IMG/VR virus record: IMGVR_UViG_3300045825_000032
Coordinates: 1-53,134 of that record
Direction: 5' to 3' (one strand)
Length of the DNA stretch: 53,134 bases
Origin: a virus
Taxonomy: Duplodnaviria; Caudoviricetes
The position numbers and the translations under genes are program-made. Numbering within the stretch: the stretch's first letter is position 1; each line of letters starts with the position of its first letter. Shown one piece after another: positions 128-29,631 of the stretch. The notes under the pieces were generated by a model. It was not told the origin of the DNA, made no database searches, and saw only the letters and a program-made list of their open reading frames with translations.

Positions 128-3100
128 TACTGGGGTTGCCGAGTCTGGATTATCTCTTGCTACTGGAGCTGGTAGTATGCTGACTGGTCTGGTTCCTGCG
201 GCTATGCAGAAACTAAACGACTCCTCTGTTGACTTTGAGAAGCAGTATGCTGCTAATATTGATAGAACCACCTATGAACCTAGAGAACAACTAGGTAAAG
301 ACCTTGTAGAGAAATCAGGTAAGTTTATTAATGATACTTTGGTCCCCGGTGTTATGGGTGCCCAAGGACTTCCGTATGTAAATACGGCTGCTGTTCCTCT
401 TCGTGCTGGATTGTCTGCCCTAGGTAAGAATCTACGTAAAGCTGGAGAAAAAGCACCCTCTAAGGTTGAGTCTGCTATCGCAGAACTCAATAGTAAAGAA
501 GAATCTAAAGTTGACCCTAACTTAGAGTTCTATAAACAAGAAGCAGAACGTAAACGTCAAGAGGCTCTTGGTATCATCCAAGTAGATCCTAATGGTATTG
601 CTCGTACTGCCGAACAGGAACGTAGTCAACCTAGGGTAGAGGAGAAAGCCACTAATGGCCCTGACGGGCAAATGGCTTTGTTTGATATTCCTGAAAACCT
701 TAGACAACCTACTAAGTATGAGGCTGTTCCGGGGGATTGGCGTGTTGATGAGAATGGTATTCCTATTAAGGCCGACCTTAGTATGGAAGCTCAGAACCTA
801 CAGGAACCCCTTCAAAGGAACCTGTGGGGGGATGAACTTGCTCCTAAACATGAGCAGGAAGCCCCTAGAGGCCTCACAGACGCGATTGATTCAATGGACT
901 GGGCACATAAGAGGGGTGCCCTTAAAAAGACGCTCCTAGGCCATGATTTAGAAGCTCCCGGTACTCTGGAAGCAGCTAAGATGGCAGCCGAGAACCAAGC
1001 TAATCGTAACCCTCATGGCAGTCCTCTCATTGAGATGAACTCTGGGATTAAGGTTAGCCGTGAAGCCATTGAAAAGCTTCGTTTCCTTCGTGATGAAATC
1101 CCTGTTACTACTGATAAGGGATATAAGCTCTCTATTGGGGAAGCTGGTCCTGTTAAACGTAATGAAGCTAATCAATGGTTGGTAGACAATACACATACTC
1201 CTACAGAGGGTGATAGAAGTCTAGTAGCCAAGGATATTCATGGACGTGTAGTTGCTTATGTTGATTTAAGTCATGTAGAAGGTAACACCTTTACTCCTAA
1301 GGATGTGAAGGTATCTGCTGAGGCACAACGTAAAGGGATTGCTACTGCTCTCTATAATGAAGCAGAACGTCGTGGCTGGACTATTAAAGAGTCTCCCTAC
1401 AAGACGGATGCTGGTAGTGCCTTCCGTAAAGGCTTTAATGCCAAACAAGGACAAGTCACTGAACTCAACTCTGGTTTAAAGCCTAGTTGGGGTCAAAAAG
1501 ATACCATAGAACCTCTGAAGGCTATCCCCGGTATCGGTAATAGGCTTCGTGAGGTTGGTCATGCTATGATTCAATCTCCTGAGGAAGCTATCAAGCTTGC
1601 CAAAGAACGGCCTGACGTTTCTCAAGGACTTATAGATAAGACCTTATCTTTAAATAACATGATGACCAAGGGAGGTACTTACCTAAAAGCTAAAGTTAAC
1701 AACCCAGTGGTTCACTATGTTGTGGATAAGTTCTTAGGTGCAGAGAATAGAGGTAAGGCTGAGATTGCGGACAAGGTACATCAAACCTACCTTCCTACTC
1801 TCCGTGACCTCTCCGGTAAAGAGCGTACAGAAGTGTTCACTCTGTTGAATGCTGCGGACTTAAACAAGAAGACTATTACTCCTGAACTTATGAATAAATG
1901 GGGTCTTTCTGACAAACAGAAAGCCTTTATTACTCTTCATAACGAGAGGATGGCTGATGTATTGGGTAAGATTAACTCTGCCCGTGAAGCTGTAGGGAAA
2001 AAGCCTATCGAGGCTCGTGAAGCCTACTCTGCCATGAATATGACAGGTGACTATCGTAAGGTAGTTAAAGTAGGAGAACAGGTAGTAGGTGTGATTGGTT
2101 CTAACTCCATGACCTTTGGAAAGAACTCTCTAAAGAATCTTGAAAAGAATCTGAAGGAGAAGAACCCAACCTATGAGTTTGGTCCCTTAGTCAAAGCTAA
2201 TGAAACTACCCGTACTAAAGGTAGTCCACATGAAGCCTTTATGGATGTATTGAAGACTCTTGGTGAGGATAATCCCCACATGAAAGAGTTCCTGAATACT
2301 CTAGCTGAGGTTGCTAAAGATGATGCCTCTAACTATATGGGTATGCAGAAGCATACTCTGACTAAGAAGGGTGTCTTTGGTATGGAAGGACGGAAAGAGT
2401 GGCTGTCCCCCGAAGAGAATGCTAAACAGTTCTTTGAGAACCAAGTCCGCTATATGGAGAATGCCTATAATTGGGCACACATTACCGAAGCAGCTAAGGA
2501 TGTAAATAAAGTCCTTCGTGATAAGGATGTAATTGATAAGCAGCCTAAAGCTATTAAGATGGGTGAAGACTACATGGCTAATGCCATCGGTCTTAATACC
2601 AGTAAAGTAGGTAAGGCTATGAATACTCTTATTCATACTCCTTTAGAGTTGCTTGGATATGGTCCCTCAGTAGGTAGAGAGGGTGTTAGTTTAGCTCGTA
2701 AGACGGCTAATACTATGGTCCTGTCTCTGAATCCATTCTTCTTAGCTATTAACATAATGCAACCTATGGCAGCTATGCCGGGGTTGAGTTCGATGCTCAG
2801 GAGTGTTGGGGGTAGTAAATCCCTTACCTTTGGTATTGGGGATATGACTAAGGCTGCTTGGACTCTAACTAAACCTAAATCTATGCTTTCTGGCTTAGAG
2901 AAGGGTGCTTTAGACTATGCTAAAGACAACCATATATATTCTACTGATATGGTGGAACACGCTAATCAAGTGGAGAAAGGTACTCGTTACTATGGTACTA
3001 AGGTCCTACAAGGGCCTGCGGCTATGGTGGAACAGGCTACCCGTGCCCAGATGTATATGGGTCTAGTCCATATGCTAGACAGTGCAGGTATTACTCCTAA

Positions 3101-4127
3101 AGCTGGATTGTATGAACAAGCCCATCGGTTTACCGACATGGCTATGAACAACTATGCAGCTATTGAGAAGCCCCCTATCTATAATGCCCTAGGGGATGCA
3201 GGTAGTATGGCCTATAATTTAAAGAGTTATGGACATAATGAGATTTCTCGTTGGGCTTTGTATGCTCGTGAGTTAGGTGAACATGGAAATGCCAAACCTA
3301 TCCTGACCCAAATGGCGACTACAATTGCCTTGGCAGGGGTTATGGGGCTTCCCTTCTTCTCTCAATGGGATGATTTGTATAGTTACATTACTAAGAAACT
3401 AGGTTCTCCTAGGTCCCTTAGTTTGGATACTATTGCTATGTCTGAGAAAGTAGGTAAGCATCTAGGCCCTAAAGGAGCCTATGCTCTGTCTAATGGCTTA
3501 TTCTCTATTGCTGGTGCTGATATGTCTAAACGTGTTGGCCTAGGTGATGTGGTCCCTAGCCATGTATCTGATGCTGCTTTCGCTGGCGCAGGTAAGCTAG
3601 GAAGTGCTGTGAAGGCTGGAGTTGGTGCTGTGATGGACCCATCCAATCCTGATAAGTGGAAAGCTTTGGGATACAACGTGGCTCCTCAAGTTGCCCAAGG
3701 ACCTATGGATGTGAGTATGTACCAGAAGAATGGTCTTGCTTATAGTAAAGACCCTGAGAATATCCATCCTGTAGCTAAACGTAATGATACCGATATTCTC
3801 ATGAAGAAGATTGGTCTTACAGGGATAAATGAGTCAGTCCAAAAGACTAAGAACTATGAGAACTCCCAAATTACTAAAGCTATTATGGAGTATCGTACTC
3901 AAGGGTTACATCAGATTGCTCAAGACTTGTTTAACAACAGGCCAATCAATCCTAAAGCAATTGAACGCTACTTTAAGAATGGTCAGGGGGATGGTAAATC
4001 CTTTGAAATGGACCTACAAAACCTAGCTCAGAAGCAGAACATGGACCCACGTACTTACCAAGTTATCAGGGATGCTGCCTCACAGCGTATTCCCCAAGTT
4101 AGGGAACTGCAAAGGATTACACAATGA
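84..4127 (+). CDS. Large internal virion/ejection (polyvalent) protein with a GNAT domain; true start is ATG 52980 across the junction (about 1384 aa)
   Basis: The frame is open across the junction (MADFDWDKPATDEFAWD...KQY-MDSAK). It contains GNAT motif A (VSAEAQRKGIATALY) and is the last and largest of the post-tail genes. Confidence 0.7.
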   Translation: MDSAKQGSMDWSNNLTGVAESGLSLATGAGSMLTGLVPAAMQKLNDSSVDFEKQYAANIDRTTYEPREQLGKDLVEKSGKFINDTLVPGVMGAQGLPYVNTAAVPLRAGLSALGKNLRKAGEKAPSKVESAIAELNSKEESKVDPNLEFYKQEAERKRQEALGIIQVDPNGIARTAEQERSQPRVEEKATNGPDGQMALFDIPENLRQPTKYEAVPGDWRVDENGIPIKADLSMEAQNLQEPLQRNLWGDELAPKHEQEAPRGLTDAIDSMDWAHKRGALKKTLLGHDLEAPGTLEAAKMAAENQANRNPHGSPLIEMNSGIKVSREAIEKLRFLRDEIPVTTDKGYKLSIGEAGPVKRNEANQWLVDNTHTPTEGDRSLVAKDIHGRVVAYVDLSHVEGNTFTPKDVKVSAEAQRKGIATALYNEAERRGWTIKESPYKTDAGSAFRKGFNAKQGQVTELNSGLKPSWGQKDTIEPLKAIPGIGNRLREVGHAMIQSPEEAIKLAKERPDVSQGLIDKTLSLNNMMTKGGTYLKAKVNNPVVHYVVDKFLGAENRGKAEIADKVHQTYLPTLRDLSGKERTEVFTLLNAADLNKKTITPELMNKWGLSDKQKAFITLHNERMADVLGKINSAREAVGKKPIEAREAYSAMNMTGDYRKVVKVGEQVVGVIGSNSMTFGKNSLKNLEKNLKEKNPTYEFGPLVKANETTRTKGSPHEAFMDVLKTLGEDNPHMKEFLNTLAEVAKDDASNYMGMQKHTLTKKGVFGMEGRKEWLSPEENAKQFFENQVRYMENAYNWAHITEAAKDVNKVLRDKDVIDKQPKAIKMGEDYMANAIGLNTSKVGKAMNTLIHTPLELLGYGPSVGREGVSLARKTANTMVLSLNPFFLAINIMQPMAAMPGLSSMLRSVGGSKSLTFGIGDMTKAAWTLTKPKSMLSGLEKGALDYAKDNHIYSTDMVEHANQVEKGTRYYGTKVLQGPAAMVEQATRAQMYMGLVHMLDSAGITPKAGLYEQAHRFTDMAMNNYAAIEKPPIYNALGDAGSMAYNLKSYGHNEISRWALYARELGEHGNAKPILTQMATTIALAGVMGLPFFSQWDDLYSYITKKLGSPRSLSLDTIAMSEKVGKHLGPKGAYALSNGLFSIAGADMSKRVGLGDVVPSHVSDAAFAGAGKLGSAVKAGVGAVMDPSNPDKWKALGYNVAPQVAQGPMDVSMYQKNGLAYSKDPENIHPVAKRNDTDILMKKIGLTGINESVQKTKNYENSQITKAIMEYRTQGLHQIAQDLFNNRPINPKAIERYFKNGQGDGKSFEMDLQNLAQKQNMDPRTYQVIRDAASQRIPQVRELQRITQ

Positions 4128-4564
4128 ACATATCAGACAAAGGAATTAAGTTCCTTAAATATGTAGAAGGTGTAGAGCATAAAGCCTATATTGATAGTGG
4201 GGGTGTTGCTACTATTGGGGTCGGTCATACAGGTCCTGAGGTAAAACTCGGGCTTGTGTGGTCTGACCAACAGATAGAAGACTCCTTGAAGAAAGACTTG
4301 AAATGGGCAGAGGATGCTGTCAATGGTGATGTGGCTTGCCCCCTAAACCAAAACCAGTATGATGCCCTTGTCAGCTTTGTATTCAATGTTGGAGTTCATG
4401 CCTTTGAGCAATCCACTCTATTGAAACTCCTGAATATAGGAGATACTGATGGAGCCATGCACCAATTCATGCGTTGGAATATGGATAATGGTCATGTTGT
4501 CGCTGGTCTTACTAAACGTAGGGGAGCAGAGGTAGCTCTATTCAACGGTACTTGGAGTACCTAA
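4124..4564 (+). CDS. Endolysin, GH24 lysozyme
   Basis: EG...AYIDSGGVATIGVGHT, QNQYDALVSFVFNVG and GLTKRR motifs. Confidence 0.93.
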   Translation: MNISDKGIKFLKYVEGVEHKAYIDSGGVATIGVGHTGPEVKLGLVWSDQQIEDSLKKDLKWAEDAVNGDVACPLNQNQYDALVSFVFNVGVHAFEQSTLLKLLNIGDTDGAMHQFMRWNMDNGHVVAGLTKRRGAEVALFNGTWST

Positions 4565-5148
4565 TGGATGACAACCTTCAACAGATTATTGATAAGGCTA
4601 ATGCCAATCCTGACTATCGTGCTTTAGTTGATTATCTCAGTACTAGGAAACAAATGCCTAGTATGGCTGTAGAAGACTTAGCTGGAGGTTTGGGGATGTA
4701 TCGTCCGCAAACTAACCATGTGGTCTTAGACAGAACTAGGGGAATGACTCCCGAAAATCTACTACATGAAACTACTCATTCGGCATATAAAAATATGTCA
4801 GACCAATACCTTGAACTTCATAAGAAACCAAATAAGACTCCTTATGAATCTCAATTTGTTGATAGTTATGAGAAGATGAATGGAGAGGGAAATAGGGAAA
4901 TGACTTCTCCTCAGTGGTATGACCAGCAAAGAGACTATAGGGTAAAACCTACAGAAGAGTATGCTCATGGAGTGCAGAATGCTAATTATCCACCGGGACC
5001 TATTCCGTATGAGGCAACTAATGTGGGATGGAGAGCACCGGGAGGGCATTTAGACCCTACCAAGGCTAGTGAGATTATGATGTTAATGGAACAAGCTAAA
5101 CGAGCACAAAGTCCTCCGGGATTCCTTCAACGATTATTCAGTAGATAA
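4564..5148 (+). CDS. Putative zinc metallopeptidase-like protein
   Basis: LLHETTH (HExxH) with a downstream EEYA. The ATG at 4564 overlaps the lysozyme stop. Confidence 0.55.
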   Translation: MDDNLQQIIDKANANPDYRALVDYLSTRKQMPSMAVEDLAGGLGMYRPQTNHVVLDRTRGMTPENLLHETTHSAYKNMSDQYLELHKKPNKTPYESQFVDSYEKMNGEGNREMTSPQWYDQQRDYRVKPTEEYAHGVQNANYPPGPIPYEATNVGWRAPGGHLDPTKASEIMMLMEQAKRAQSPPGFLQRLFSR

Positions 5149-5328: not shown

Positions 5329-5780
5329 TTAATCTTATAGGTCTTTACACCCATACCTGTATAAGTGTCCTTCTTACTAGCAATCTTAATGGCTTCCGTG
5401 GGGGTGGCTCCTGCCATCATAGCCCCCATAGCAATACCCTGACCACTACCAATAGCTCCAAAAGGTTCATTTACTTTAAGCCACTTATCATAGCTGTCAA
5501 AGGTAAAGATTTCCCCTTCTTCAGTTAGTACCAAACCAATAAGTCCTTTTACTTTTGGTGGTTTATCAAATTGATGGGGCCTACTAAAGAATTCTGCTGT
5601 TACAATAATGTCTTGGGCAGTCCCAGCAAACCCCACATAGAAGTCACAGTGCGGATAGGTATCCTTATGCTTCTCGAATTTGTAGACTTTAGGGGAGCCT
5701 TTAAATTTACTGGCATTATTCATATCAGTATATTGAAGGTCCCCTGCAATCTCCTGTTTGTTACAAGCAATAGTAGTCAT
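5325..5780 (-). CDS. HslV/proteasome-beta-like Ntn peptidase
   Basis: N-terminal MTTIA, then AGD, K, GFAG and AIGSG motifs. The ATG at 5780 abuts the RNR stop. Confidence 0.7.
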   Translation of the reverse strand: MTTIACNKQEIAGDLQYTDMNNASKFKGSPKVYKFEKHKDTYPHCDFYVGFAGTAQDIIVTAEFFSRPHQFDKPPKVKGLIGLVLTEEGEIFTFDSYDKWLKVNEPFGAIGSGQGIAMGAMMAGATPTEAIKIASKKDTYTGMGVKTYKIK

Positions 5781-7513
5781 TAGACTCCACAAGACCCACC
5801 ATGACCCGTAATATCACAAACATCATGTTCTTCAAATACAGTTCCTTTATGTGTTAGGGCTTCTCCATAGTCACACTCGGTAATGGGTTGACCTCCTCGA
5901 CTTCCATCTGGATAGCAGGTGAAACCTCGCAACCTAGGAGCGTACTTAGCGAGAGTGTTTGCAAAGAGTTCAACATCAGACTCTTTGTTTCCTTTACTCC
6001 CCCAACTAGGTAGGTTGATGGTTGAACTAATTGACATATCAACGTAATCCTGTATGTCGGCCTGAAACTTGATTCGTCGTTCATAATCATGACTTAGTTT
6101 GTAGGCGGTGTCAATGGAGCTTGGGTCGATTCCGTACTCTTTAATAAGTCTGTCGGCTGTCGCATCCACAACATAGGAGTATTTCCACTTTGTTCCTTCA
6201 GTGAGAAATCTACGTTTATATGCGACGGCAAACAAAGGCTCAATACCAGTTGTAGTAGAAGCAAGAATCCCAATAGTACCAGTAGGGGCAATAGCCCGAT
6301 AAGCCACAGGACGAGATATAAAAAACCTATCACAGTGCTCATCAGCCGCACGCTTAGATTCATCACGATATACCTTTAACCATTCGTGGAGTTCTGGGGT
6401 GACTTCATACTTTGCTCCTCGTTGTAGCAACCATTCATGAATACCCATAAGTCCAAGACCGAGCCGTCGATTCTTTTCACGGACACGATATACCTTTTCG
6501 TAAGGTAAGTCAGCGCGAAGGGTTCCACATACGAGGAATTTGCTTGCGAGGCTAACGACACTTTTGAAATCTTCCAAACTCGAAATATTACCAAGATTGA
6601 TAGACCCAAGATTACAAACGTCGCTGTCGTCTTCGCTCGTAACCTCTGTACAAGCATTTCTAAGTGTTTCATTCTGTTTATCTCCAAAGTTAAAGCTAAA
6701 GCCCGGCTCACCTGTCTCCATCGCCTGTCGAACATTCTGTAGGAAGATTGGGTTTTCTGCAAGGGTATTAACTTGCTTAAAGAAGAACTCTTTATTTATT
6801 TTATTTAGTTCTTCATGACTACCAGCTACTTTATATTCTTTATAGGAATACCCCTCTCCTAACAAGGCAGCATCATCATAATTGACACTAATGTTAGTCA
6901 TGTCCAACGGAGCAGGGAAGTTAAAGTCTTTCTCTTTCTGTTCCTTTATGAATTGGGACCAATTTTTGACTTTAAGGAATTCTGGAATATCTTCATGTTG
7001 CCAGTTAAGGCTTGCGTAGATTGCCGAGCGACGACTCCCACCTTGCATAACATTTCTACCAATTTCATTGATTGCTGACATGAGAGGGAGTGGCCCCGAA
7101 GCAATACCTCCAGTTCGTGACAGAGCCTTTCCAGCCGGGCGAAGTCGTGAGTAGTCAATTCCAATTCCGCCTCCAGTCATTAAACAAGACATAGCTCGCC
7201 ATGTTACATTACTCCATTCTTCTCGTGTGTCCTCTTCTGCTCTCAATAAATAGCAATTATTGAAGGCGTGATAAGGTCTACCAGCATAGTATAAATAACG
7301 TCCACCAGCAATGAAAGCCATTTCTTTCATATACTGAAGGAGCTGGTGTCTATCCCCCTCATTCATTAAAGCAGGAAGAGTCCCTCCTCTTGTTCCACAT
7401 ACATCATCTACTACTCGTTCACAAAGCGCGTCCCATGTATCGTTAGCACCTTGGGCATATTTGTTCCTAAAAATTGTGTCTGCAAATTCTGTTTTAAATC
7501 TATTTACTATCAT
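5780..7513 (-). CDS. nrdJ: Class II (adenosylcobalamin-dependent) ribonucleotide reductase
   Basis: NNC, NACTE, CNLGS and APTGT motifs with C-terminal cysteines. No beta subunit or activase was recognised in the genome. Confidence 0.85.
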   Translation of the reverse strand: MIVNRFKTEFADTIFRNKYAQGANDTWDALCERVVDDVCGTRGGTLPALMNEGDRHQLLQYMKEMAFIAGGRYLYYAGRPYHAFNNCYLLRAEEDTREEWSNVTWRAMSCLMTGGGIGIDYSRLRPAGKALSRTGGIASGPLPLMSAINEIGRNVMQGGSRRSAIYASLNWQHEDIPEFLKVKNWSQFIKEQKEKDFNFPAPLDMTNISVNYDDAALLGEGYSYKEYKVAGSHEELNKINKEFFFKQVNTLAENPIFLQNVRQAMETGEPGFSFNFGDKQNETLRNACTEVTSEDDSDVCNLGSINLGNISSLEDFKSVVSLASKFLVCGTLRADLPYEKVYRVREKNRRLGLGLMGIHEWLLQRGAKYEVTPELHEWLKVYRDESKRAADEHCDRFFISRPVAYRAIAPTGTIGILASTTTGIEPLFAVAYKRRFLTEGTKWKYSYVVDATADRLIKEYGIDPSSIDTAYKLSHDYERRIKFQADIQDYVDMSISSTINLPSWGSKGNKESDVELFANTLAKYAPRLRGFTCYPDGSRGGQPITECDYGEALTHKGTVFEEHDVCDITGHGGSCGV

Positions 7514-9496: not shown

Positions 9497-9687
9497 TGTG
9501 TCATGGGGGCCTGTGGAGATACAATACCTAATTCCTCATCAGATTTACCTGTGAACAACGGCATCACTCCGTTAGCCATAAGAAAGTTAATCCCTACGTT
9601 GAGGACTAGCTCAACCTCTTGCTTATTGAGAGTACCTTCAAAGGTAACATTCCCATCAGCATCTTCAGTCTTTACTTGAATTTTCAT
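9493..9687 (-). CDS. Hypothetical protein
   Basis: ORF overlaps both neighbours within the operon. Confidence 0.6.
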   Translation of the reverse strand: MKIQVKTEDADGNVTFEGTLNKQEVELVLNVGINFLMANGVMPLFTGKSDEELGIVSPQAPMTQ

Positions 9688-10092: not shown

Positions 10093-10812
10093 TTAATTGT
10101 CCGAGAAGTCTGGAAATTGCCATATGTCATTTTCCTTGTGGAAGATATATAAGCATTGACCATTCATAAGCATTTCTTCATCATTAGAATAAGCATCACG
10201 AACAGCTTCAAACATTTCCTGCTCTGTAGTCAGGCCGTCCAAGATTCGAGTTGCTTTGACTTTACCAATTCCAGAAACACCCTTGAGGCCATCTGTTGCA
10301 TCTCCGATAAGGAGTTGGTAGTAGAAAAATCTAAGTCCATCTTCGGCTGTGACACTAGCAAACTCTGCTGGTTTTGTCCAACGATTTTTACCCACAACGC
10401 CCCCTGATATTTCCCAACTGTAATGATTACCGGGGATTTGCCGAAGGTCTTTGTCCAAAGAGCAAATAACTGTGTTACGAATATCCCCACATTGGCTAAT
10501 TCCAAGAAGGTCATCTGCTTCACATCCGTCAGAACGTACCGCGTTATATTGTTGCTCAAGATAGTCTTTACATTGTGTAAGGTACTGAGGTCGGTCCATA
10601 GTAAGCCGATTGGCTTTATACTCTGGAAAGACTTGATACCTAAAATTATTCTCTCCTGAGAGAGCTACATACATTTCGCTGGCATGTGTGGCTAATAGAA
10701 TATCATCTATCAAACGCTCCATATAATAACGAGCGATTTCAAAGGTTTCTAGATTAGCAGCAGCGGCACACCTGTATGCAATAATATCCCCATCTATTAG
10801 GGCTTTAATCAT
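10093..10812 (-). CDS. 5'-3' exonuclease (T7 gp6/T5 D15-like)
   Basis: LIDGD, YKANR, EADD, SLDKD and GD.TDG..GV.GIG motifs. Confidence 0.92.
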   Translation of the reverse strand: MIKALIDGDIIAYRCAAAANLETFEIARYYMERLIDDILLATHASEMYVALSGENNFRYQVFPEYKANRLTMDRPQYLTQCKDYLEQQYNAVRSDGCEADDLLGISQCGDIRNTVICSLDKDLRQIPGNHYSWEISGGVVGKNRWTKPAEFASVTAEDGLRFFYYQLLIGDATDGLKGVSGIGKVKATRILDGLTTEQEMFEAVRDAYSNDEEMLMNGQCLYIFHKENDIWQFPDFSDN

Positions 10813-11065
10813 AACTTATAACGGACCCCCTTGACCTATGTGGGTACTCTCGGTACTCCATAAAACATCGGTAAACTCCATTCTTTTTAGCTATCCATGC
10901 TTCTTGTTTTACTGTATCCCTACAGTTTTCATGCCATTCCATGTGTTCATTAACATCCTTGGTGAGAGCAACCCCCATCCAAAATCCGGCTGTTCCAAAG
11001 GAAGCAGAACAAAGGATAAGGGTTAGTATATACAAGAAGTCCTGAACCTTACTCTTTAGGCTCAA
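10805..11065 (-). CDS. Hypothetical membrane protein
   Basis: N-terminal hydrophobic helix and operon position. Confidence 0.55.
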   Translation of the reverse strand: MSLKSKVQDFLYILTLILCSASFGTAGFWMGVALTKDVNEHMEWHENCRDTVKQEAWIAKKNGVYRCFMEYREYPHRSRGSVISYD

Positions 11066-11516
11066 GTACCCAGTCCGTGAACTGTTGAGCTACCTCGATT
11101 ACAGTATTAACATCAAGATGCTCAATGTCAGACCGCAATTTAATGTACTCGATAGCATTACTGATACTGGACTGTTTAATGATATACACTTGTTTACGAG
11201 CACGTTCTTCTGGAGTCTCATAGTTACTACCAGTGACTCGTGTAGTGCCTGTAGTTGAGGCAGGAGCACCTGTAGGAGCACTACCATCACTAATAGAGGC
11301 CCATTCATTGTAACCTTGGGCATTCTTGGTCAACTGAACGTCAACTTCTTGTCCTGCCAAAGTTTGTACTTGTTTATAGATGCTAGGATTAGCAAAATCC
11401 ATAATGTTCTGAGTACGGGGTTCACCATTATAGGTGTAAGCTACAATAGCTTTATTGTAACCCTTTGTACCTTTTTTAACGAACTCGTTATTAACACTGT
11501 TAATTGTAATTTTCAA
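11049..11516 (-). CDS. Putative single-stranded DNA-binding protein (TTG start)
   Basis: Beta-rich N-terminal half. It lies between the polymerase and the exonuclease and has its own strong promoter. Function is inferred. Confidence 0.4.
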   Translation of the reverse strand: MKITINSVNNEFVKKGTKGYNKAIVAYTYNGEPRTQNIMDFANPSIYKQVQTLAGQEVDVQLTKNAQGYNEWASISDGSAPTGAPASTTGTTRVTGSNYETPEERARKQVYIIKQSSISNAIEYIKLRSDIEHLDVNTVIEVAQQFTDWVLEPKE

Positions 11517-12235
11517 AGTTTAATTTCCTTCATTTCTAGTTTGTTCATCCCATACTGCACTTCGCAGGACAGGGGTAGTTTAAATTCATAGTCGAAGACT
11601 TGTTTACATAGTTTTGGTACATCTTCGATTGCTTGTTTTAAAAGCATACTAATATTATACACGTTTTTCTCTGGTGTGTCAAGTACTATCGAGTCATGGA
11701 TGGTAGAAATCATTAGAGCTTCCATACCAGACTCACGTAGTAGCTTTCTAGCTTGTAAACGTGCAAGCATAACCAAGTCTGCACCGAATCCCTGAACTGG
11801 ATAGTTTTTAATAATTGTCAGGGGCCACGGCTCAGTCTTGTTGTAGTCAGGGGTTATGGGATAGTGTCTCCCACTTGGGATAGTAAGCTTCCCTTCTTTT
11901 TGGGCGGTACGGAGGAGTTCTCCGTGCCATCGCTGGATTCCTTTATATTTAGAGTAATACTCGTCAATAATGCCTTGCCAGAACTGGACAGACTTAGATA
12001 CGTCTTGAAAGTCTGCATCGTTTGCATAAGAGTATGCGCTTCCACCGTAGATAAGTCTGAACTTAAAGATTTTAGCAATAAGTCTTCCTTGTTTCCCTTC
12101 ACCGAGTTTAAATCTATCACGATTTGCTTCATGTATATCTACCTTGTCAATAATTTCTTGGCACAGAACTTCATCCCCGGATAGCTCTGCGGCTACAACG
12201 ACCTCTAGCCCTTTTACGTCAGCGTTAATTAGTAT
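11513..12235 (-). CDS. Family A DNA polymerase, C-terminal catalytic part (probable ATA start)
   Basis: The frame is open upstream of the track ORF and contains motif A (NADVKGLE), motif B (RLIAKIFKFRLIYG), NYPVQG and motif C (HDS). An in-frame TAG lies at 12248-12250. Confidence 0.88.
   Translation of the reverse strand: MLINADVKGLEVVVAAELSGDEVLCQEIIDKVDIHEANRDRFKLGEGKQGRLIAKIFKFRLIYGGSAYSYANDADFQDVSKSVQFWQGIIDEYYSKYKGIQRWHGELLRTAQKEGKLTIPSGRHYPITPDYNKTEPWPLTIIKNYPVQGFGADLVMLARLQARKLLRESGMEALMISTIHDSIVLDTPEKNVYNISMLLKQAIEDVPKLCKQVFDYEFKLPLSCEVQYGMNKLEMKEIKL
11654..11682 (-). promoter_or_regulatory. Sigma70 promoter inside the polymerase CDS
   Basis: Exact TTGACA-N17-TATAAT. Confidence 0.85.
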
Positions 12236-12413
12236 TATTGTACTCCTCTATAAAACATTCTGCTTCCGCATCTGAATCATTTTCTTGAAGAATATATAAT
12301 TCCATTATCCAAAGTTTATTTATAGTATCAAGATATTTCTCTGCCGGGTTAGCTTTATACCATTCTATATCTTGAAATTCTTTTTTCCATCTAAATGAAA
12401 CAAATTTAGTCAT
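12225..12413 (-). CDS. Small hypothetical protein between the polymerase halves
   Basis: AT-rich 62-aa ORF overlapping both halves. Confidence 0.6.
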   Translation of the reverse strand: MTKFVSFRWKKEFQDIEWYKANPAEKYLDTINKLWIMELYILQENDSDAEAECFIEEYNNTN

Positions 12414-13590
12414 ATCTTGAGATTAAAAGTTGGTCAACTTGATTTCCAAAGTTCTGCATATTGGGATTACTACTGGATAATCGACCAGTTCTAGCCACTA
12501 CCTGATTATACTGTCCATGTAGAAACTCACCCCATCCCATCTTGTCTAGGAGTTCAGGAAGCTTCCCAAAATAAGTATCCATCAGTTTAGCTAACTCTGC
12601 TCGTTCCAATAGCAACTCAATAATCCGTCTATGTTCCTTTGTGGGTTTCTTTAATTGTTTTAGTACCCCTTCATTAGTTTCATAGATAGTAATTTCCTGA
12701 ATACTTCCGTCTGGTAAAGCCAGCTTCTTTTTAAGTTTTGTTTCAGTTTTAGGGAGAGGTCTGAACCTCCACCCACATTCATAGATAACAATGTTATGTC
12801 GAACCCGTGTATAAACTTCTCCCTTACGTGGGCCGCTTTTGTAGACTGTCTCTTCTTCTGTGGGTTCATCAATATCTATTTTCCCGCCATATAACAGACA
12901 GCTAAGATGTTGACCGCTGTCGAGATTAATAGCAGGAGTAGGGGAATGCGTGAGAAGCTCCTCTGTAATCGTCTGTAATTTCTTTGCCGTTTCGTTAGCT
13001 TTAACATTACATAACTCCTTATCAAATTTAATTCCATTCCATTCAATCTCTGCAAGAACCAACAAATCTAATCCCATAATCAGACAGAGTTTCTTCTGTT
13101 TCTCTGTCATTACCTCTTGCTGTTTGAGATAGAGTTTGTAGGTAAGGTCTACATCGAGGTCATTGTAGAACTGCAATTCAGTTACAGGAATGTCTGGAGT
13201 ATCTATCCCAAGGGACCAATACTCGGCAATTTTATCATCTTTGGAACCTAGTTCATACTTCGCAAGGCACTCATTAAGACTAGGATAAGTGCTCGTTTGA
13301 CCGGAGATAATGAACTCCGCCAGTTGGCAATCCCAGATGCGAGTTTTATCAGGTGGTACTATCCCATGCCTGCGAACCCATGTCAGGTCAAATTTAAGAT
13401 TAAATCCTACTACCAGACTTGCTGACTGCATTTCGAGACGTAGCTCATGCAGGAAGTCCGGGGCATCATAATAGTTAAATGATGGTGGATTATCATCTAT
13501 CTTCACTGAATAGGACACCAACTTGTTACTCGCCGTAAACGGGTGTCCTTTCAGATGTGTGGTTGTCTCTACGTCAAATGTTAATACAAT
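12406..13590 (-). CDS. Family A DNA polymerase, N-terminal 3'-5' exonuclease/thumb part (probable ATT start)
   Basis: ExoI (FDVET) lies upstream of the track start, followed by GFNLKFD, YNDLD and RTGRLSSSNPNMQN. AGGAGG lies 7 nt before the ATT at 13590. Confidence 0.88.
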   Translation of the reverse strand: MVLTFDVETTTHLKGHPFTASNKLVSYSVKIDDNPPSFNYYDAPDFLHELRLEMQSASLVVGFNLKFDLTWVRRHGIVPPDKTRIWDCQLAEFIISGQTSTYPSLNECLAKYELGSKDDKIAEYWSLGIDTPDIPVTELQFYNDLDVDLTYKLYLKQQEVMTEKQKKLCLIMGLDLLVLAEIEWNGIKFDKELCNVKANETAKKLQTITEELLTHSPTPAINLDSGQHLSCLLYGGKIDIDEPTEEETVYKSGPRKGEVYTRVRHNIVIYECGWRFRPLPKTETKLKKKLALPDGSIQEITIYETNEGVLKQLKKPTKEHRRIIELLLERAELAKLMDTYFGKLPELLDKMGWGEFLHGQYNQVVARTGRLSSSNPNMQNFGNQVDQLLISRYD

Positions 13591-13601
13591 ATTAAAACCT
13601 C

Positions 13602-13700
13602 CTATTCACTTTTAATAAGTTTACATTTTCTGCATTGGTATCTATTCATACCATAACCAGCAGACCCAACATATTCCCAATCATGTTTGCATTCAATCAT
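13602..13700 (-). CDS. 32-aa zinc-finger-like peptide (not in the ORF track)
   Basis: MIECKHDWEY...YQCRKCKLIKSE (CxH...CxxC), overlapping the helicase stop. Confidence 0.6.
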   Translation of the reverse strand: MIECKHDWEYVGSAGYGMNRYQCRKCKLIKSE

Positions 13701-14946
13701 AATTTTCAATGTCCTTAAAACGTGCAATCTCCGGTTCAATCAACACTTGCATACGAGCATGGCGCATATGAGGGATAGTATCTTCATCTCCTAACAATTT
13801 GTTCTTTGAAATGTTAAGGTAGCGAATATACTCTGCACCCTCTGCATGGGTATTACCCATACCTAGAATCCAATCTGCCTCTGCTTGTTTACTGGTCTTT
13901 GCATTAGCTACGTTATCCATAGTAAGCCACTTCTGGCCCTCCGCAGTACCGTCAGCCTGACATACACCAATAACCGGACAATATCGTTTAGCTAGTTCCC
14001 TAGCCCAGATATAGATTGCTCCTAGCCGTAGGTCTTCCCGGTCAGCATCAAAGCCCTTAATCTTGTCAATCTGGTCAAAGACAACAAGACTAGGGTTTAG
14101 TTGCTTACAAATAGCTTCGACTTTGGACCGACCTATTAACGCGTCGTCAACAAGCCGGAATGAATCAGTTGGAAATCCATGTTTGTACCTTTCAGTTGAA
14201 CCCAACAATTGTTCAAGTCGTACTCCGTGGAACCCTTGATGTACACGAAGCATGACCTCAGCACCAACCTGCTCGTTGTTGAACCATATAATCGGGCCAC
14301 GAGTATCAGGTAAATGTTGAAGCATATATGAAACTTCCGATGCAAGGAAAGTAGTTTTTCCTGACTCTGGTCTTGCGAAAAGAAATCCGAAGTTTCCTTT
14401 TCTAAGGCTTCCAAGGCTTTTGTTAAGGCAATCAAGTCTCCATCTAAGTCCTTTATCCTGATATACTTCGTGTAGAAGCTTCTCCAAATCCCCCGAAACA
14501 AACTCGAAATCTTCCGTCGTTTCTGGATTGTCATTGTTTAATTCCTCCAATAGTTCATTAACAGGTGTTAATTCCCCGGACCCAGTACTGAACTTAAAGG
14601 CTGCCTCAGACAGTTTTAAAGCCGTTTTACGGCGTTTAATCTGCTTAAGGATACCTACCCCTAGGGTGGGGTCTATTTGTGTCTCTGAGAGCGTTTTAAA
14701 TAGCTCCAGATAGATTCCTTTATCCACATCAGGGTATGCTGTGAAGAAAGCAGCCTGTAGGTCGTCTAAACTGAAGTCCTGTATGTAATCCCTATGCAGG
14801 GATTGTAACACCTTGTAAACATAATATAGTTCTTTATACTCATCCCTGATATGTTGCAGGTCAATAGAGTCAAAGTAGCTATCGTAGAACTCCCGTCTTA
14901 GTAGGAGTGTGATTAAGTCCCGTTCAGGGACGTATATAGTATTCAT
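13693..14946 (-). CDS. DnaB-like (SF4) replicative helicase
   Basis: Walker A ARPESGKT, VVFDQ, CQA and AEAD motifs. Confidence 0.9.
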   Translation of the reverse strand: MNTIYVPERDLITLLLRREFYDSYFDSIDLQHIRDEYKELYYVYKVLQSLHRDYIQDFSLDDLQAAFFTAYPDVDKGIYLELFKTLSETQIDPTLGVGILKQIKRRKTALKLSEAAFKFSTGSGELTPVNELLEELNNDNPETTEDFEFVSGDLEKLLHEVYQDKGLRWRLDCLNKSLGSLRKGNFGFLFARPESGKTTFLASEVSYMLQHLPDTRGPIIWFNNEQVGAEVMLRVHQGFHGVRLEQLLGSTERYKHGFPTDSFRLVDDALIGRSKVEAICKQLNPSLVVFDQIDKIKGFDADREDLRLGAIYIWARELAKRYCPVIGVCQADGTAEGQKWLTMDNVANAKTSKQAEADWILGMGNTHAEGAEYIRYLNISKNKLLGDEDTIPHMRHARMQVLIEPEIARFKDIENYD

Positions 14947-29556: not shown

Positions 29557-29631
29557 AAGTCTCTAAGATAACGGCAGTCGTCTGGCCTCCAAAGCCATGA
29601 AGTCGCGGTTCGAATCCGTGGGGATTTGCCA
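29557..29631 (+). tRNA. trnW: tRNA-Trp(CCA)
   Basis: Acceptor AAGTCTC/GGGATTT, anticodon arm TGGC-CTCCAAA-GCCA, T-arm CGCGG-TTCGAAT-CCGTG, discriminator G and encoded CCA. Confidence 0.85.

Follow-up and report, generated by a model that had tools for sequence, protein, structure and literature searches.

In Escherichia coli, the genes infC, encoding initiation factor 3 (IF3), and pcnB, encoding poly(A) polymerase I, are initiated at AUU, a start that goes with an enzyme needed in small amounts and that gene finders miss. IF3 discriminates against near-cognate start codons such as AUU. Among phages, a DNA polymerase divided between two open reading frames (ORFs) was described in the MEP401 type by Yang et al. 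in 2023, who suggested an intron (PMC10580990). Here we analyze a split family A DNA polymerase in IMGVR_UViG_3300045825_000032, a complete virus record of 53,134 bp with direct terminal repeats at its ends; "the window" below means this whole stretch of DNA. The N-terminal (PolN) and C-terminal (PolC) parts of the enzyme lie in separate cistrons, neither of which has a canonical start codon and each of which carries a strong Shine-Dalgarno (SD) sequence before an AUH codon (AUU, AUC or AUA) that is homologous to the ATG of relatives. We consider it likely, with a probability of roughly 0.8, that the polymerase is made from these two separate cistrons by initiation at AUU and AUA behind strong SDs.

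Proposed start sites of the two cistrons

The window polymerase is a family A enzyme with a 3'-5' exonuclease, and both the Pfam domains and the catalytic motifs of such an enzyme are present. PolN matches PF00476 (E 6.5e-18) and PF01612 (E 5.4e-4; its 20.3 bits do not reach the curated cut-off of 23.6), and PolC matches PF00476 (E 1.9e-30). The translation of PolN contains FDVET (Exo I), GFNLKFD and YNDLDVD as exonuclease motifs, and that of PolC contains NADVKGLE, RLIAKIFKFRLIYGG and IHDS, which we take to be polymerase motifs A, B and C, just as we take the former to be Exo I to III. PolN reaches about 13 residues beyond its NMQNF motif. It aligns with the Klenow polymerase up to chain residue 356 with 13 residues left over, and PolC aligns from residue 377 with 1 residue before it, while Klenow has 20 residues in the gap. 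The break is thus clean: it falls in the loop that precedes the motif A strand, and nothing essential is lost.

The PolN frame opens after a TGA at 13608-13606 (coordinates for the polymerase region refer to the minus strand) and reads ATA GGA GGT TTT AAT ATT GTA TTA ACA TTT GAC GTA GAG. Its first canonical in-frame start is TTG 13521, which lies 28 codons in and past Exo I. The PolC frame opens after a TAG at 12250-12248 and reads AGG AGT ACA ATA ATA CTA ATT AAC GCT GAC; its first canonical codon, TTG 11776, lies 157 codons in, past motifs A and B. An earlier annotation of this DNA (the sequence-only reading) had described AGGAGG seven nucleotides before ATT with no ATG, GTG or TTG ahead of Exo I, and GAGGAG-TACA-ATA ATA with a first canonical TTG that would cost PolC motifs A and B. 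That description was right at every coordinate checked, and both cistrons need near-cognate starts, there being no canonical start upstream of their essential N-terminal residues. Among the 72 long ORFs on the coding strands, PolN and PolC alone lack a canonical start near the upstream stop. An ATT at 4540 and an ATC at 9520 also looked like near-cognate starts, but both genes proved to have ordinary overlapping ATG starts.

Both SDs stand at a working spacing. Duplex energies were calculated for the 18 nt upstream of each start against a generic bacterial anti-SD, assumed to apply to the host. By this measure AGGAGG-N7-ATT scores -10.9 kcal/mol, a level reached by 2 of the 72 long-ORF starts in the window, and GAGGAG-N7-ATA scores -8.6 kcal/mol, reached by 9 of the 72. 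For PolC, we favor the second ATA (12235-12233), which has a 7-nt spacing to the SD and corresponds to the ATG of three related loci (L006, L010 and L023). The first ATA (12238) aligns with the ATG of three others (L020, L009 and L016), and the ATT at 12229 is a weaker candidate. The predicted N-terminal peptides are (M)VLTFDVETTTHLK for PolN and (M)LINADVK for PolC.

Each start is preceded by a small ORF that is interlocked with its neighbors. The ATG of a 32-aa mini ORF shares bases with the helicase stop (ATGATTGA), and its own stop, TAG (13604-13602), overlaps the PolN SD 11 nt upstream of ATT. In the same way, the ATG of a 62-aa spacer ORF overlaps the PolN stop (ATGACTAA), the PolC SD sits in its last codons, and its stop TAA (12227-12225) overlaps the PolC codons ATT AAC. 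The spacer ORF has no Pfam or PHROG match and no homologue in any locus compared, and it does not match the spacer ORF of L020. We considered and ruled out a frameshift fusion of the mini ORF to PolN, as there is no slippery sequence and stops occur in the PolN frame up to 13606. Nor did the mini ORF show meaningful similarity, as a possible relic, to the metallophosphoesterase gene that precedes PolN in L025, L020 and L017; the TTG TAY TAA that they share is the +1 frame of conserved PolN codons. A TTG at 13589, one base into the ATT, was likewise discarded as a PolN start, since it reads TTG TAT TAA and cannot yield polymerase. This overlapping TTG (13581-13590, A TTG TAT TAA) would give fMet-Tyr only and could compete with ATT; the same ATTG is found in L025, L020 and L005.

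Gene finders leave PolN without the proofreading motif Exo I and PolC without motifs A and B. As the sequence-only reading had anticipated, the public PolN call is truncated: it is 366 aa long, begins VKIDDNPPSF and lacks Exo I. In 27 of 119 other best database homologues of PolN (P0031-P0119) the call also begins after Exo I (e.g., MVSYSVK...). Near-cognate starts, 5' inserts or contig edges would each produce such calls.

Start codons and SD strength among relatives

To place these starts, we examined relatives, cited here by locus number and including the best 80 of 497 from IMG/VR. The split and the gene order around it also occur in MEP401/402 (Methylophilales), Alcaligenes phage QDWS535, MW202697 and the ICP2 group, as well as in many IMG/VR and other metagenome contigs. 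With two ORFs cut before motif A and the gene order kept, the window polymerase is, judged by sequence, a split of the MEP401/ICP2 type. A close clade was defined by a PolN identity of at least 58% and comprises 13 distinct lineages, loci from the same or identical contigs having been merged. In L014, PolN is 38% and PolC 65% identical to the window, which suggests that the halves may be exchanged separately by recombination.

Among the start codons of homologues, ATT, ATA and ATC recur, and ATG is the most frequent codon at the homologous position. Within the close clade, ATT is the only PolN start available in five of the 13 lineages (the window, L025, L005, L020 and L010), seven have ATG and one has TTG. 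The homology of the codon is plain when ATG GTA CTG ACG TTT GAT of L022 is set against ATT GTA TTA ACA TTT GAC of the window. For PolC, the start is readable in 11 lineages: ATA in the window, ATC in L005 and L007, ATG in six, GTG in one and TTG in one. The near-cognate PolC codons align with the ATG of other lineages. An ATG stands at the homologous codon in MEP401 (ATG ATA CTT AAC GCA GAT) and L006 (ATG CTA ATT AAT GCG GAC), and in MEP401 and QDWS535 it lies 4 to 5 codons upstream of the motif A Asp. In L007 (4184-5565), a 157-aa HNH ORF (4508-4981) divides PolC again ahead of motif B (RLIYGG), and the first PolC piece (4184-4366) has no canonical start and begins with ATC behind AGGAGA. In the wider set, where near-identical loci are not all collapsed, near-cognate starts alone are available at 7 of 98 PolN and 4 of 97 PolC loci.

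The near-cognate codon therefore recurs across orthologues without being fixed (5/13 for PolN and 3/11 for PolC). A maximum likelihood tree of PolN (midpoint-rooted, with 5 of its 18 forks drawn open) shows the ATT lineages scattered. The window pairs with L025, its closest relative (74% PolN protein identity), at 99/98. With 99/99 support, L005 falls within a clade that also includes L006 and L009, both of which have ATG, and L020 and L010 fall elsewhere. This scatter implies that the start state has changed at least three or four times.

Start codon and SD strength go together. In the close clade, the five ATT starts of PolN have SD energies of -7.7 to -10.9 kcal/mol, compared to +1.3 to -6.4 kcal/mol for the eight canonical starts. 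For PolC, the three ATA or ATC starts have energies of -7.3 to -12.1 kcal/mol, compared to +1.0 to -4.3 kcal/mol for the six ATG starts. When the eight near-cognate starts were pooled and compared with the 13 ATG starts, the difference was significant (Mann-Whitney p 0.0002, relatedness ignored). In the wider set, also with relatedness ignored, near-cognate starts had the stronger SDs for PolN even when the strongest-SD canonical candidate was taken at each locus (p 0.0004), and for PolC as well (p 0.0025). The near-cognate SDs are not copies of one sequence, varying by lineage as AGGAGG, AAGGAG, AGGGAG and GGCGGAGGA.

Probable production of the halves, rival explanations and mobile ORFs

The comparisons above are consistent with a simple route to the enzyme. 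Ribosomes would initiate PolN at AUU 13590, 7 nt past AGGAGG, and PolC at AUA 12235, possibly 12238, 7 or 4 nt past GAGGAG. Each start lies within about 11 nt of the stop of the small upstream ORF, and terminating ribosomes may add to de novo, SD-led initiation by translational coupling. The PolN and PolC proteins would presumably assemble noncovalently into one enzyme. Going by published work on AUU and AUA starts, a weak codon joined to an unusually strong SD should give modest expression that depends on IF3 and host physiology, not near silence. Starts of this kind in Staphylococcus aureus, behind extended SDs, gave about 10 to 30% of the AUG level, with an output partly dependent on growth medium (PMC13009471). 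In vitro, AUU and AUA mRNAs were context dependent and all non-AUG mRNAs were severely hit by nutrient limitation and ppGpp (PMC5499595). Overexpressed IF3 is reported to reduce reinitiation (PMC2268962). Such starts might persist as a way of tuning polymerase dose, or as a tolerated by-product of mobile ORFs rebuilding the junctions.

Several points weigh against this reading. Initiation at ATT and ATA is predicted from sequence, which does not pin the PolC start, ATA 12238, ATA 12235 and ATT 12229 all being candidates. A search for RNA runs containing the stretch listed none. Noncanonical starts in E. coli yielded 0.01 to 2% of the AUG level (10.1101/063800), an output that might not suffice without help from the SD and from coupling. 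The SD tests ignore kinship, and some near-identical loci are uncollapsed. Finally, RNA folding of the two start regions gave no significant structure hinting at a switch (z +0.89 and -0.86). Folding of the PolN end likewise gave no significant structure (z +1.72), and the predicted fold pairs the PolC SD with upstream spacer-ORF sequence no better than in shuffled sequence.

Three alternatives would remove the need for one or both near-cognate starts. The record is a metagenome assembly inspected at the contig level, so that errors might have turned ATG into ATT and ATA. The sequence-only reading held such error to be unlikely. It is vanishingly so, because contigs (not raw reads) from three other runs show 0 differences from the window at both sites (X3, 13114-13747; X4, 12150-12302; X5, 12220-12493). 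Moreover, separate assemblies have the same ATT in four other lineages and ATC in two, and SD strength covaries with start-codon type. Alternatively, the halves could be joined by a group I intron, an intein or long-range bypass, leaving PolC with no need of a start. Such joining has the proposal for MEP401 cited above in its favor, as well as the ICP2 RefSeq record, in which the annotated polymerase spans an HNH gene as one joined protein, and the presence of real group I introns in the polymerase gene of relatives. In L025, a full-length RF00028 match (95 bits, 5667-5921) interrupts PolC in frame between NYPV and QGFGAD, and in L020 another (75 bits, 2985-3230) interrupts PolN in frame between RLSSS.P and NMQNF. 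Because the same Rfam library finds both, introns of this gene are detectable and are located elsewhere than at the split. In the window, Rfam at E up to 10 found no intron family in 11000-14200, its four chance matches all falling under the gathering score, and none was found in ICP2 or MEP401. An ORF whose start and stop signals overlap those of its neighbors takes up the spacer of about 170 nt, and an intein is excluded because the three reading frames differ. Relatives without any spacer have a PolC ATG, and in L006, L023 and L016 the cistrons abut or overlap in different frames. Joining would also leave the ATT of PolN unexplained. With positive controls for the intron scan and spacer-less relatives that start PolC at ATG, a spliced or fused product is very unlikely, as the sequence-only reading requires. 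The open frames of L034 and L015 stop at the same NYPV point as that of L025 and may carry the same intron. In ICP2 (L030, NC_015158:2456-5024), PolN ends ...NLQNISN followed by a stop, PolC has its own ATG (locus position 4140) and Rfam finds no intron, so that its polymerase looks like a two-cistron split.

The third alternative is local. tRNA-Asn decodes both AAT and AAC. Ribosomes on the spacer ORF might thus hop 4 nt from AAT (12230-12228) to AAC (12226-12224), skipping T and making a spacer-PolC fusion; AAT T AAC with TAA in the A site does resemble the sites CTT T CTT of L047 and CTT C CTA of L017, described below. We give this little chance. ATA CTA ATT encodes a hydrophobic strand (I-L-I) that is M/I-L-I or P-L-V in relatives, with variable third positions, and the hop would make it N-T-N. 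The strong SD stands at initiation distance from ATA, the three-cistron relatives L020 and MEP401 carry a plain ATG there, and AAT TAA is expected from any stop-over-start overlap. We judge the AAT T AAC at 12224-12230 to be a coincidence of such an overlap.

If the near-cognate starts are used, as we prefer to think, the question of their origin follows. The sequence-only reading held that polymerase synthesis is deliberately throttled or switched at initiation. The need of both cistrons for near-cognate starts stands, and a throttle is plausible, but the claim of deliberate throttling goes further than the SD pattern, which fits compensation at least as well: because a strong SD may compensate for the codon, net output is possibly similar, and throttling finds partial support. 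A nonadaptive origin is a live rival, because the start state flips on the tree and the junctions are churned by mobile ORFs. On that account, homing endonuclease genes or other small ORFs have repeatedly entered the helicase/PolN and PolN/PolC junctions, where they take over or copy the start codon already there; the downstream cistron must then initiate at whichever Ile, Leu or Val codon lies behind a strong SD in the 3' end of the insert. The near-cognate starts would be tolerated leftovers of mobile-element turnover and not a selected throttle. The gap between PolN and PolC indeed measures anything from 0 to about 1.5 kb and contains unrelated ORFs, and HNH ORFs occur in the spacer (L009 and L012), within PolC (L007) and before PolN (L017; an ORF before PolN in L016 is called HNH by its likeness to the L017 ORF only). 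The L017 HNH ORF (3001-3525) opens by repeating about the first 19 codons of PolN in wobble-recoded form (LIVTFDVETST...). An endonuclease ORF in L025 (4761-) opens MLVNADV, a copy of the PolC start, with the real PolC behind it starting at TTG. Nearly every third codon position of these N-terminal copies (in L017 and at L025:4761-4781) differs from the resident DNA. Another L025 endonuclease ORF ends with a copy of the PolN tail (4360-4391, ...DKLLVSRYD). In the window, both SDs lie within the last codons of inserted small ORFs; all five ATT lineages have an extra ORF between helicase and PolN, and the helicase is directly upstream in four of the seven ATG lineages. Against turnover, one T-to-G change is all that ATG would need, but the window and L025 have both retained ATT at 74% protein identity, and all five near-cognate PolN cases in the close clade are ATT, never ATA or ATC. 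The ATC start of L007 has no inserted ORF, while L016, L017 and L022 have upstream inserts but ATG. The window spacer ORF shows no relationship to the endonuclease family (0.5% probability in hhalign), of which the window has no copy. We regard turnover as possible, though somewhat doubtful, and as an account of origin only.

A second pattern near the PolC start came to light in relatives. Of 97 related loci, 11 lose the PolC reading frame within motif A, past the catalytic Asp and ahead of the Glu; inserts of 1, 4 or 6 nt at this point resemble hop or frameshift sites (Table 1). The insert in L097 has the CUU UGA form of prfB. A scan of all IMG/VR for CTT NNN CTN in the motif A context returned five matches. 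Three were in polymerases; NNN is a stop codon in each, and one (L114) is a new locus. The other two were unrelated sequences with sense codons. At the stop-bearing site, known from five loci, a sense codon was never seen. All 11 broken loci have a canonical start 5 to 6 codons before the Asp, and their mean SD energy is -12.0 kcal/mol, compared to a median of -5.6 kcal/mol in 82 intact loci (p 1e-7). The frame past the break is under purifying selection: dN/dS is about 0.12 between L047 and L049, and between L059 and L068 it is about 0.11. These loci may thus be recoded. An ORF family of PHROG 3322 (~145-160 aa; also matching endonuclease VII and HNH PHROGs, with no Pfam match) occupies the spacer in 8 of 11 broken loci and 0 of 86 intact ones (Fisher p 1e-9), the match in L015 being a 28-residue C-terminal remnant only. 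The last codons of this ORF hold the PolC SD. In the window, motif A is uninterrupted and there is no PHROG 3322 homologue.

We offer, tentatively and with more doubt than belief, that the 5' end of PolC is contested by a free-standing homing endonuclease of HNH or endonuclease VII type, and that the window starts are products of turnover driven by this conflict. Endonuclease-bearing genomes would shield their own motif A target by the 1-, 4- or 6-nt inserts, and ribosomes would cross these by +1/-1 shifts, +4 hops or stop hops (CTT TAG CTT, CTG TAA CTG and CTT TGA CTA). The stop hops would be driven by maximal SDs and would be the first natural ones. According to the review by Atkins et al. 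(2016; PMC5009743), stop hops with matched codons flanking the stop are known from synthetic constructs only and not from natural cases, and our literature search found no report of natural stop hops in polymerase genes. The split, the orphan spacer ORF, the strong SDs and the near-cognate starts of the window would then share one origin, with no dedicated throttle. This by-product of the analysis may matter more than the window starts themselves.

Around the polymerase, the gene order on the minus strand is DnaB-like helicase, 32-aa mini ORF, PolN, 62-aa ORF, PolC, 155-aa ORF and 5'-3' exonuclease. A DNA search against phage records gave no match. The TTG of the 155-aa ORF overlaps the PolC stop (CTTTGA), and its product has no Pfam or PHROG match. 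The sequence-only reading had named putative nearby genes for a single-stranded DNA-binding protein and a resolvase, both starting at TTG; the TTG at 11516 is real, but the binding protein lacks Pfam and PHROG support and the resolvase was not identified. A single tRNA-Trp (CCA) gene lies at 29557-29631 on the plus strand, where the minus-strand early genes give way to plus-strand structural genes.

Table 1. Features of the polymerase region in the window and of the motif A region in relatives
Feature	Position	Strand	Basis or remark
DnaB-like replicative helicase gene, ATG start	13693..14946	-	PHROG 19, E 2.5e-43; ORF list
32-aa mini ORF	13602..13700	-	Sequence; PHROG matches weak only (E 0.0014), Pfam none
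PolN Shine-Dalgarno AGGAGG	13598..13603	-	7 nt upstream of ATT; anti-SD duplex -10.9 kcal/mol
ATT, proposed PolN start codon	13588..13590	-	Homologous codon is ATG in L022, ATT in L025, L020, L005, L010
PolN cistron, 394 aa + stop	12406..13590	-	Exo I-III and N-terminal polymerase part; Pfam PF01612, PF00476 (profile 42-131); Klenow alignment
62-aa orphan spacer ORF	12225..12413	-	Sequence
PolC Shine-Dalgarno GAGGAG	12243..12248	-	Duplex -8.6 kcal/mol
ATA ATA, proposed PolC start	12233..12238	-	4 and 7 nt after GAGGAG
PolC cistron, 240 aa + stop	11513..12235	-	Palm and fingers; Pfam PF00476 (profile 153-378); aligns with Bst polymerase from chain residue 352, with Klenow from 377
Conserved 155-aa ORF, TTG 11516 start	11049..11516	-	Downstream of PolC in relatives too
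5'-3' exonuclease gene, ATG start	10093..10812	-	PHROG 107, E 2.6e-59; strong SD (-11.1)
In-frame stop between Leu codons	L025:5231-5275		CTT TGA CTA GAG
In-frame stop between Leu codons	L034:3835-3880		CTT TAG CTT GAG
In-frame stop between Leu codons	L040:4479-4525		CTT TAG CTA GAG
In-frame stop between Leu codons	L049:4222-4265		CTG TAA CTG GAG
In-frame stop between Leu codons	L114:1351-1376		CTT/CTG-stop-CTN, then GAG/GAA; IMG/VR pattern scan
4-nt insert between matched Leu codons	L047:3634-3680		CTT T CTT GAG
4-nt insert between matched Leu codons	L017:5423-5470		CTT C CTA GAA
1-nt insert	L097:4356-4400		CTT T GAG
1-nt insert	L015:3979-4020		GTT T AAA
1-nt insert	L001 (MW202697):3848-3895		AAA A GCT; record annotates truncated PolC
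1-nt loss	L059:3000-3045		At A AAG
1-nt loss	L068:3698-3740		At A AAG
PHROG 3322 endonuclease ORFs	L025:4761-5240, 3906-4391		
PHROG 3322 endonuclease ORF	L040:4028-4489		
PHROG 3322 endonuclease ORF	L049:3773-4222		
PHROG 3322 endonuclease ORF	L017:4972-5433		
PHROG 3322 endonuclease ORF	L047:3185-3634		
PHROG 3322 endonuclease ORF	L059:2567-2995		
PHROG 3322 endonuclease ORF	L068:3264-3698		
PHROG 3322 endonuclease ORF	L015:3818-3982		

Relation to known systems

The layout of a split polymerase is already known, as are AUU and AUA starts of the infC/pcnB and ccpN/cvfC1 kind. What is new here is the presence of near-cognate starts on both cistrons of one enzyme, the alternation of ATG and AUH with a compensating SD, and the case against an intron; no report of near-cognate initiation in phage DNA polymerases turned up in our literature search. 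The orthologue series, with ATG and a weak SD at one end and ATT, ATA or ATC and a strong SD at the other, provides a test bed for the trade-off between start codon and SD.

The starts in the window resemble those of infC and pcnB in being near-cognate AUH codons of the kind that IF3 discriminates against. They differ in that two cistrons of one enzyme use them and in that ATG and ATT, ATA or ATC alternate within the clade, and the autoregulatory logic of infC is absent. A parallel for the sequence context is S. aureus, where cvfC1 (AUU) and ccpN, citZ and infC (AUA) join a weak codon to an extended SD as in the window (PMC13009471). Unlike those cases, the window presents a phage gene, in which the pairing is known from comparative sequence.

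Among split polymerases, the MEP401-type OM43 phages and Vibrio phage ICP2 share the gene order and the split before motif A at 37 to 44% protein identity. MEP401 uses ATG for both halves, unlike the window, and ICP2 is cut about 12 residues earlier than the window clade, directly after NLQNI. The data gathered here argue against the published suggestion of an intron in the MEP401-type polymerases.

For the relatives with a broken motif A, the nearest counterpart is gene 39/gene 60 of phage T4, where the HNH endonuclease mobA splits a topoisomerase gene and a 50-nt bypass insert is reported to protect the target (10.1101/2022.08.31.505936). In both systems, an endonuclease splits an essential replication gene, the insert carries flanking copies and a frame-breaking insert lies downstream. 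The relatives' inserts are 1, 4 or 6 nt, unlike that of gene 60, and the gene is a DNA polymerase; if confirmed, they would represent natural stop hopping and a second system of the T4 mobA/gene 60 kind. The window itself has neither an endonuclease nor a frame break, and next to the T4 system it would be at most a lineage that lost both.

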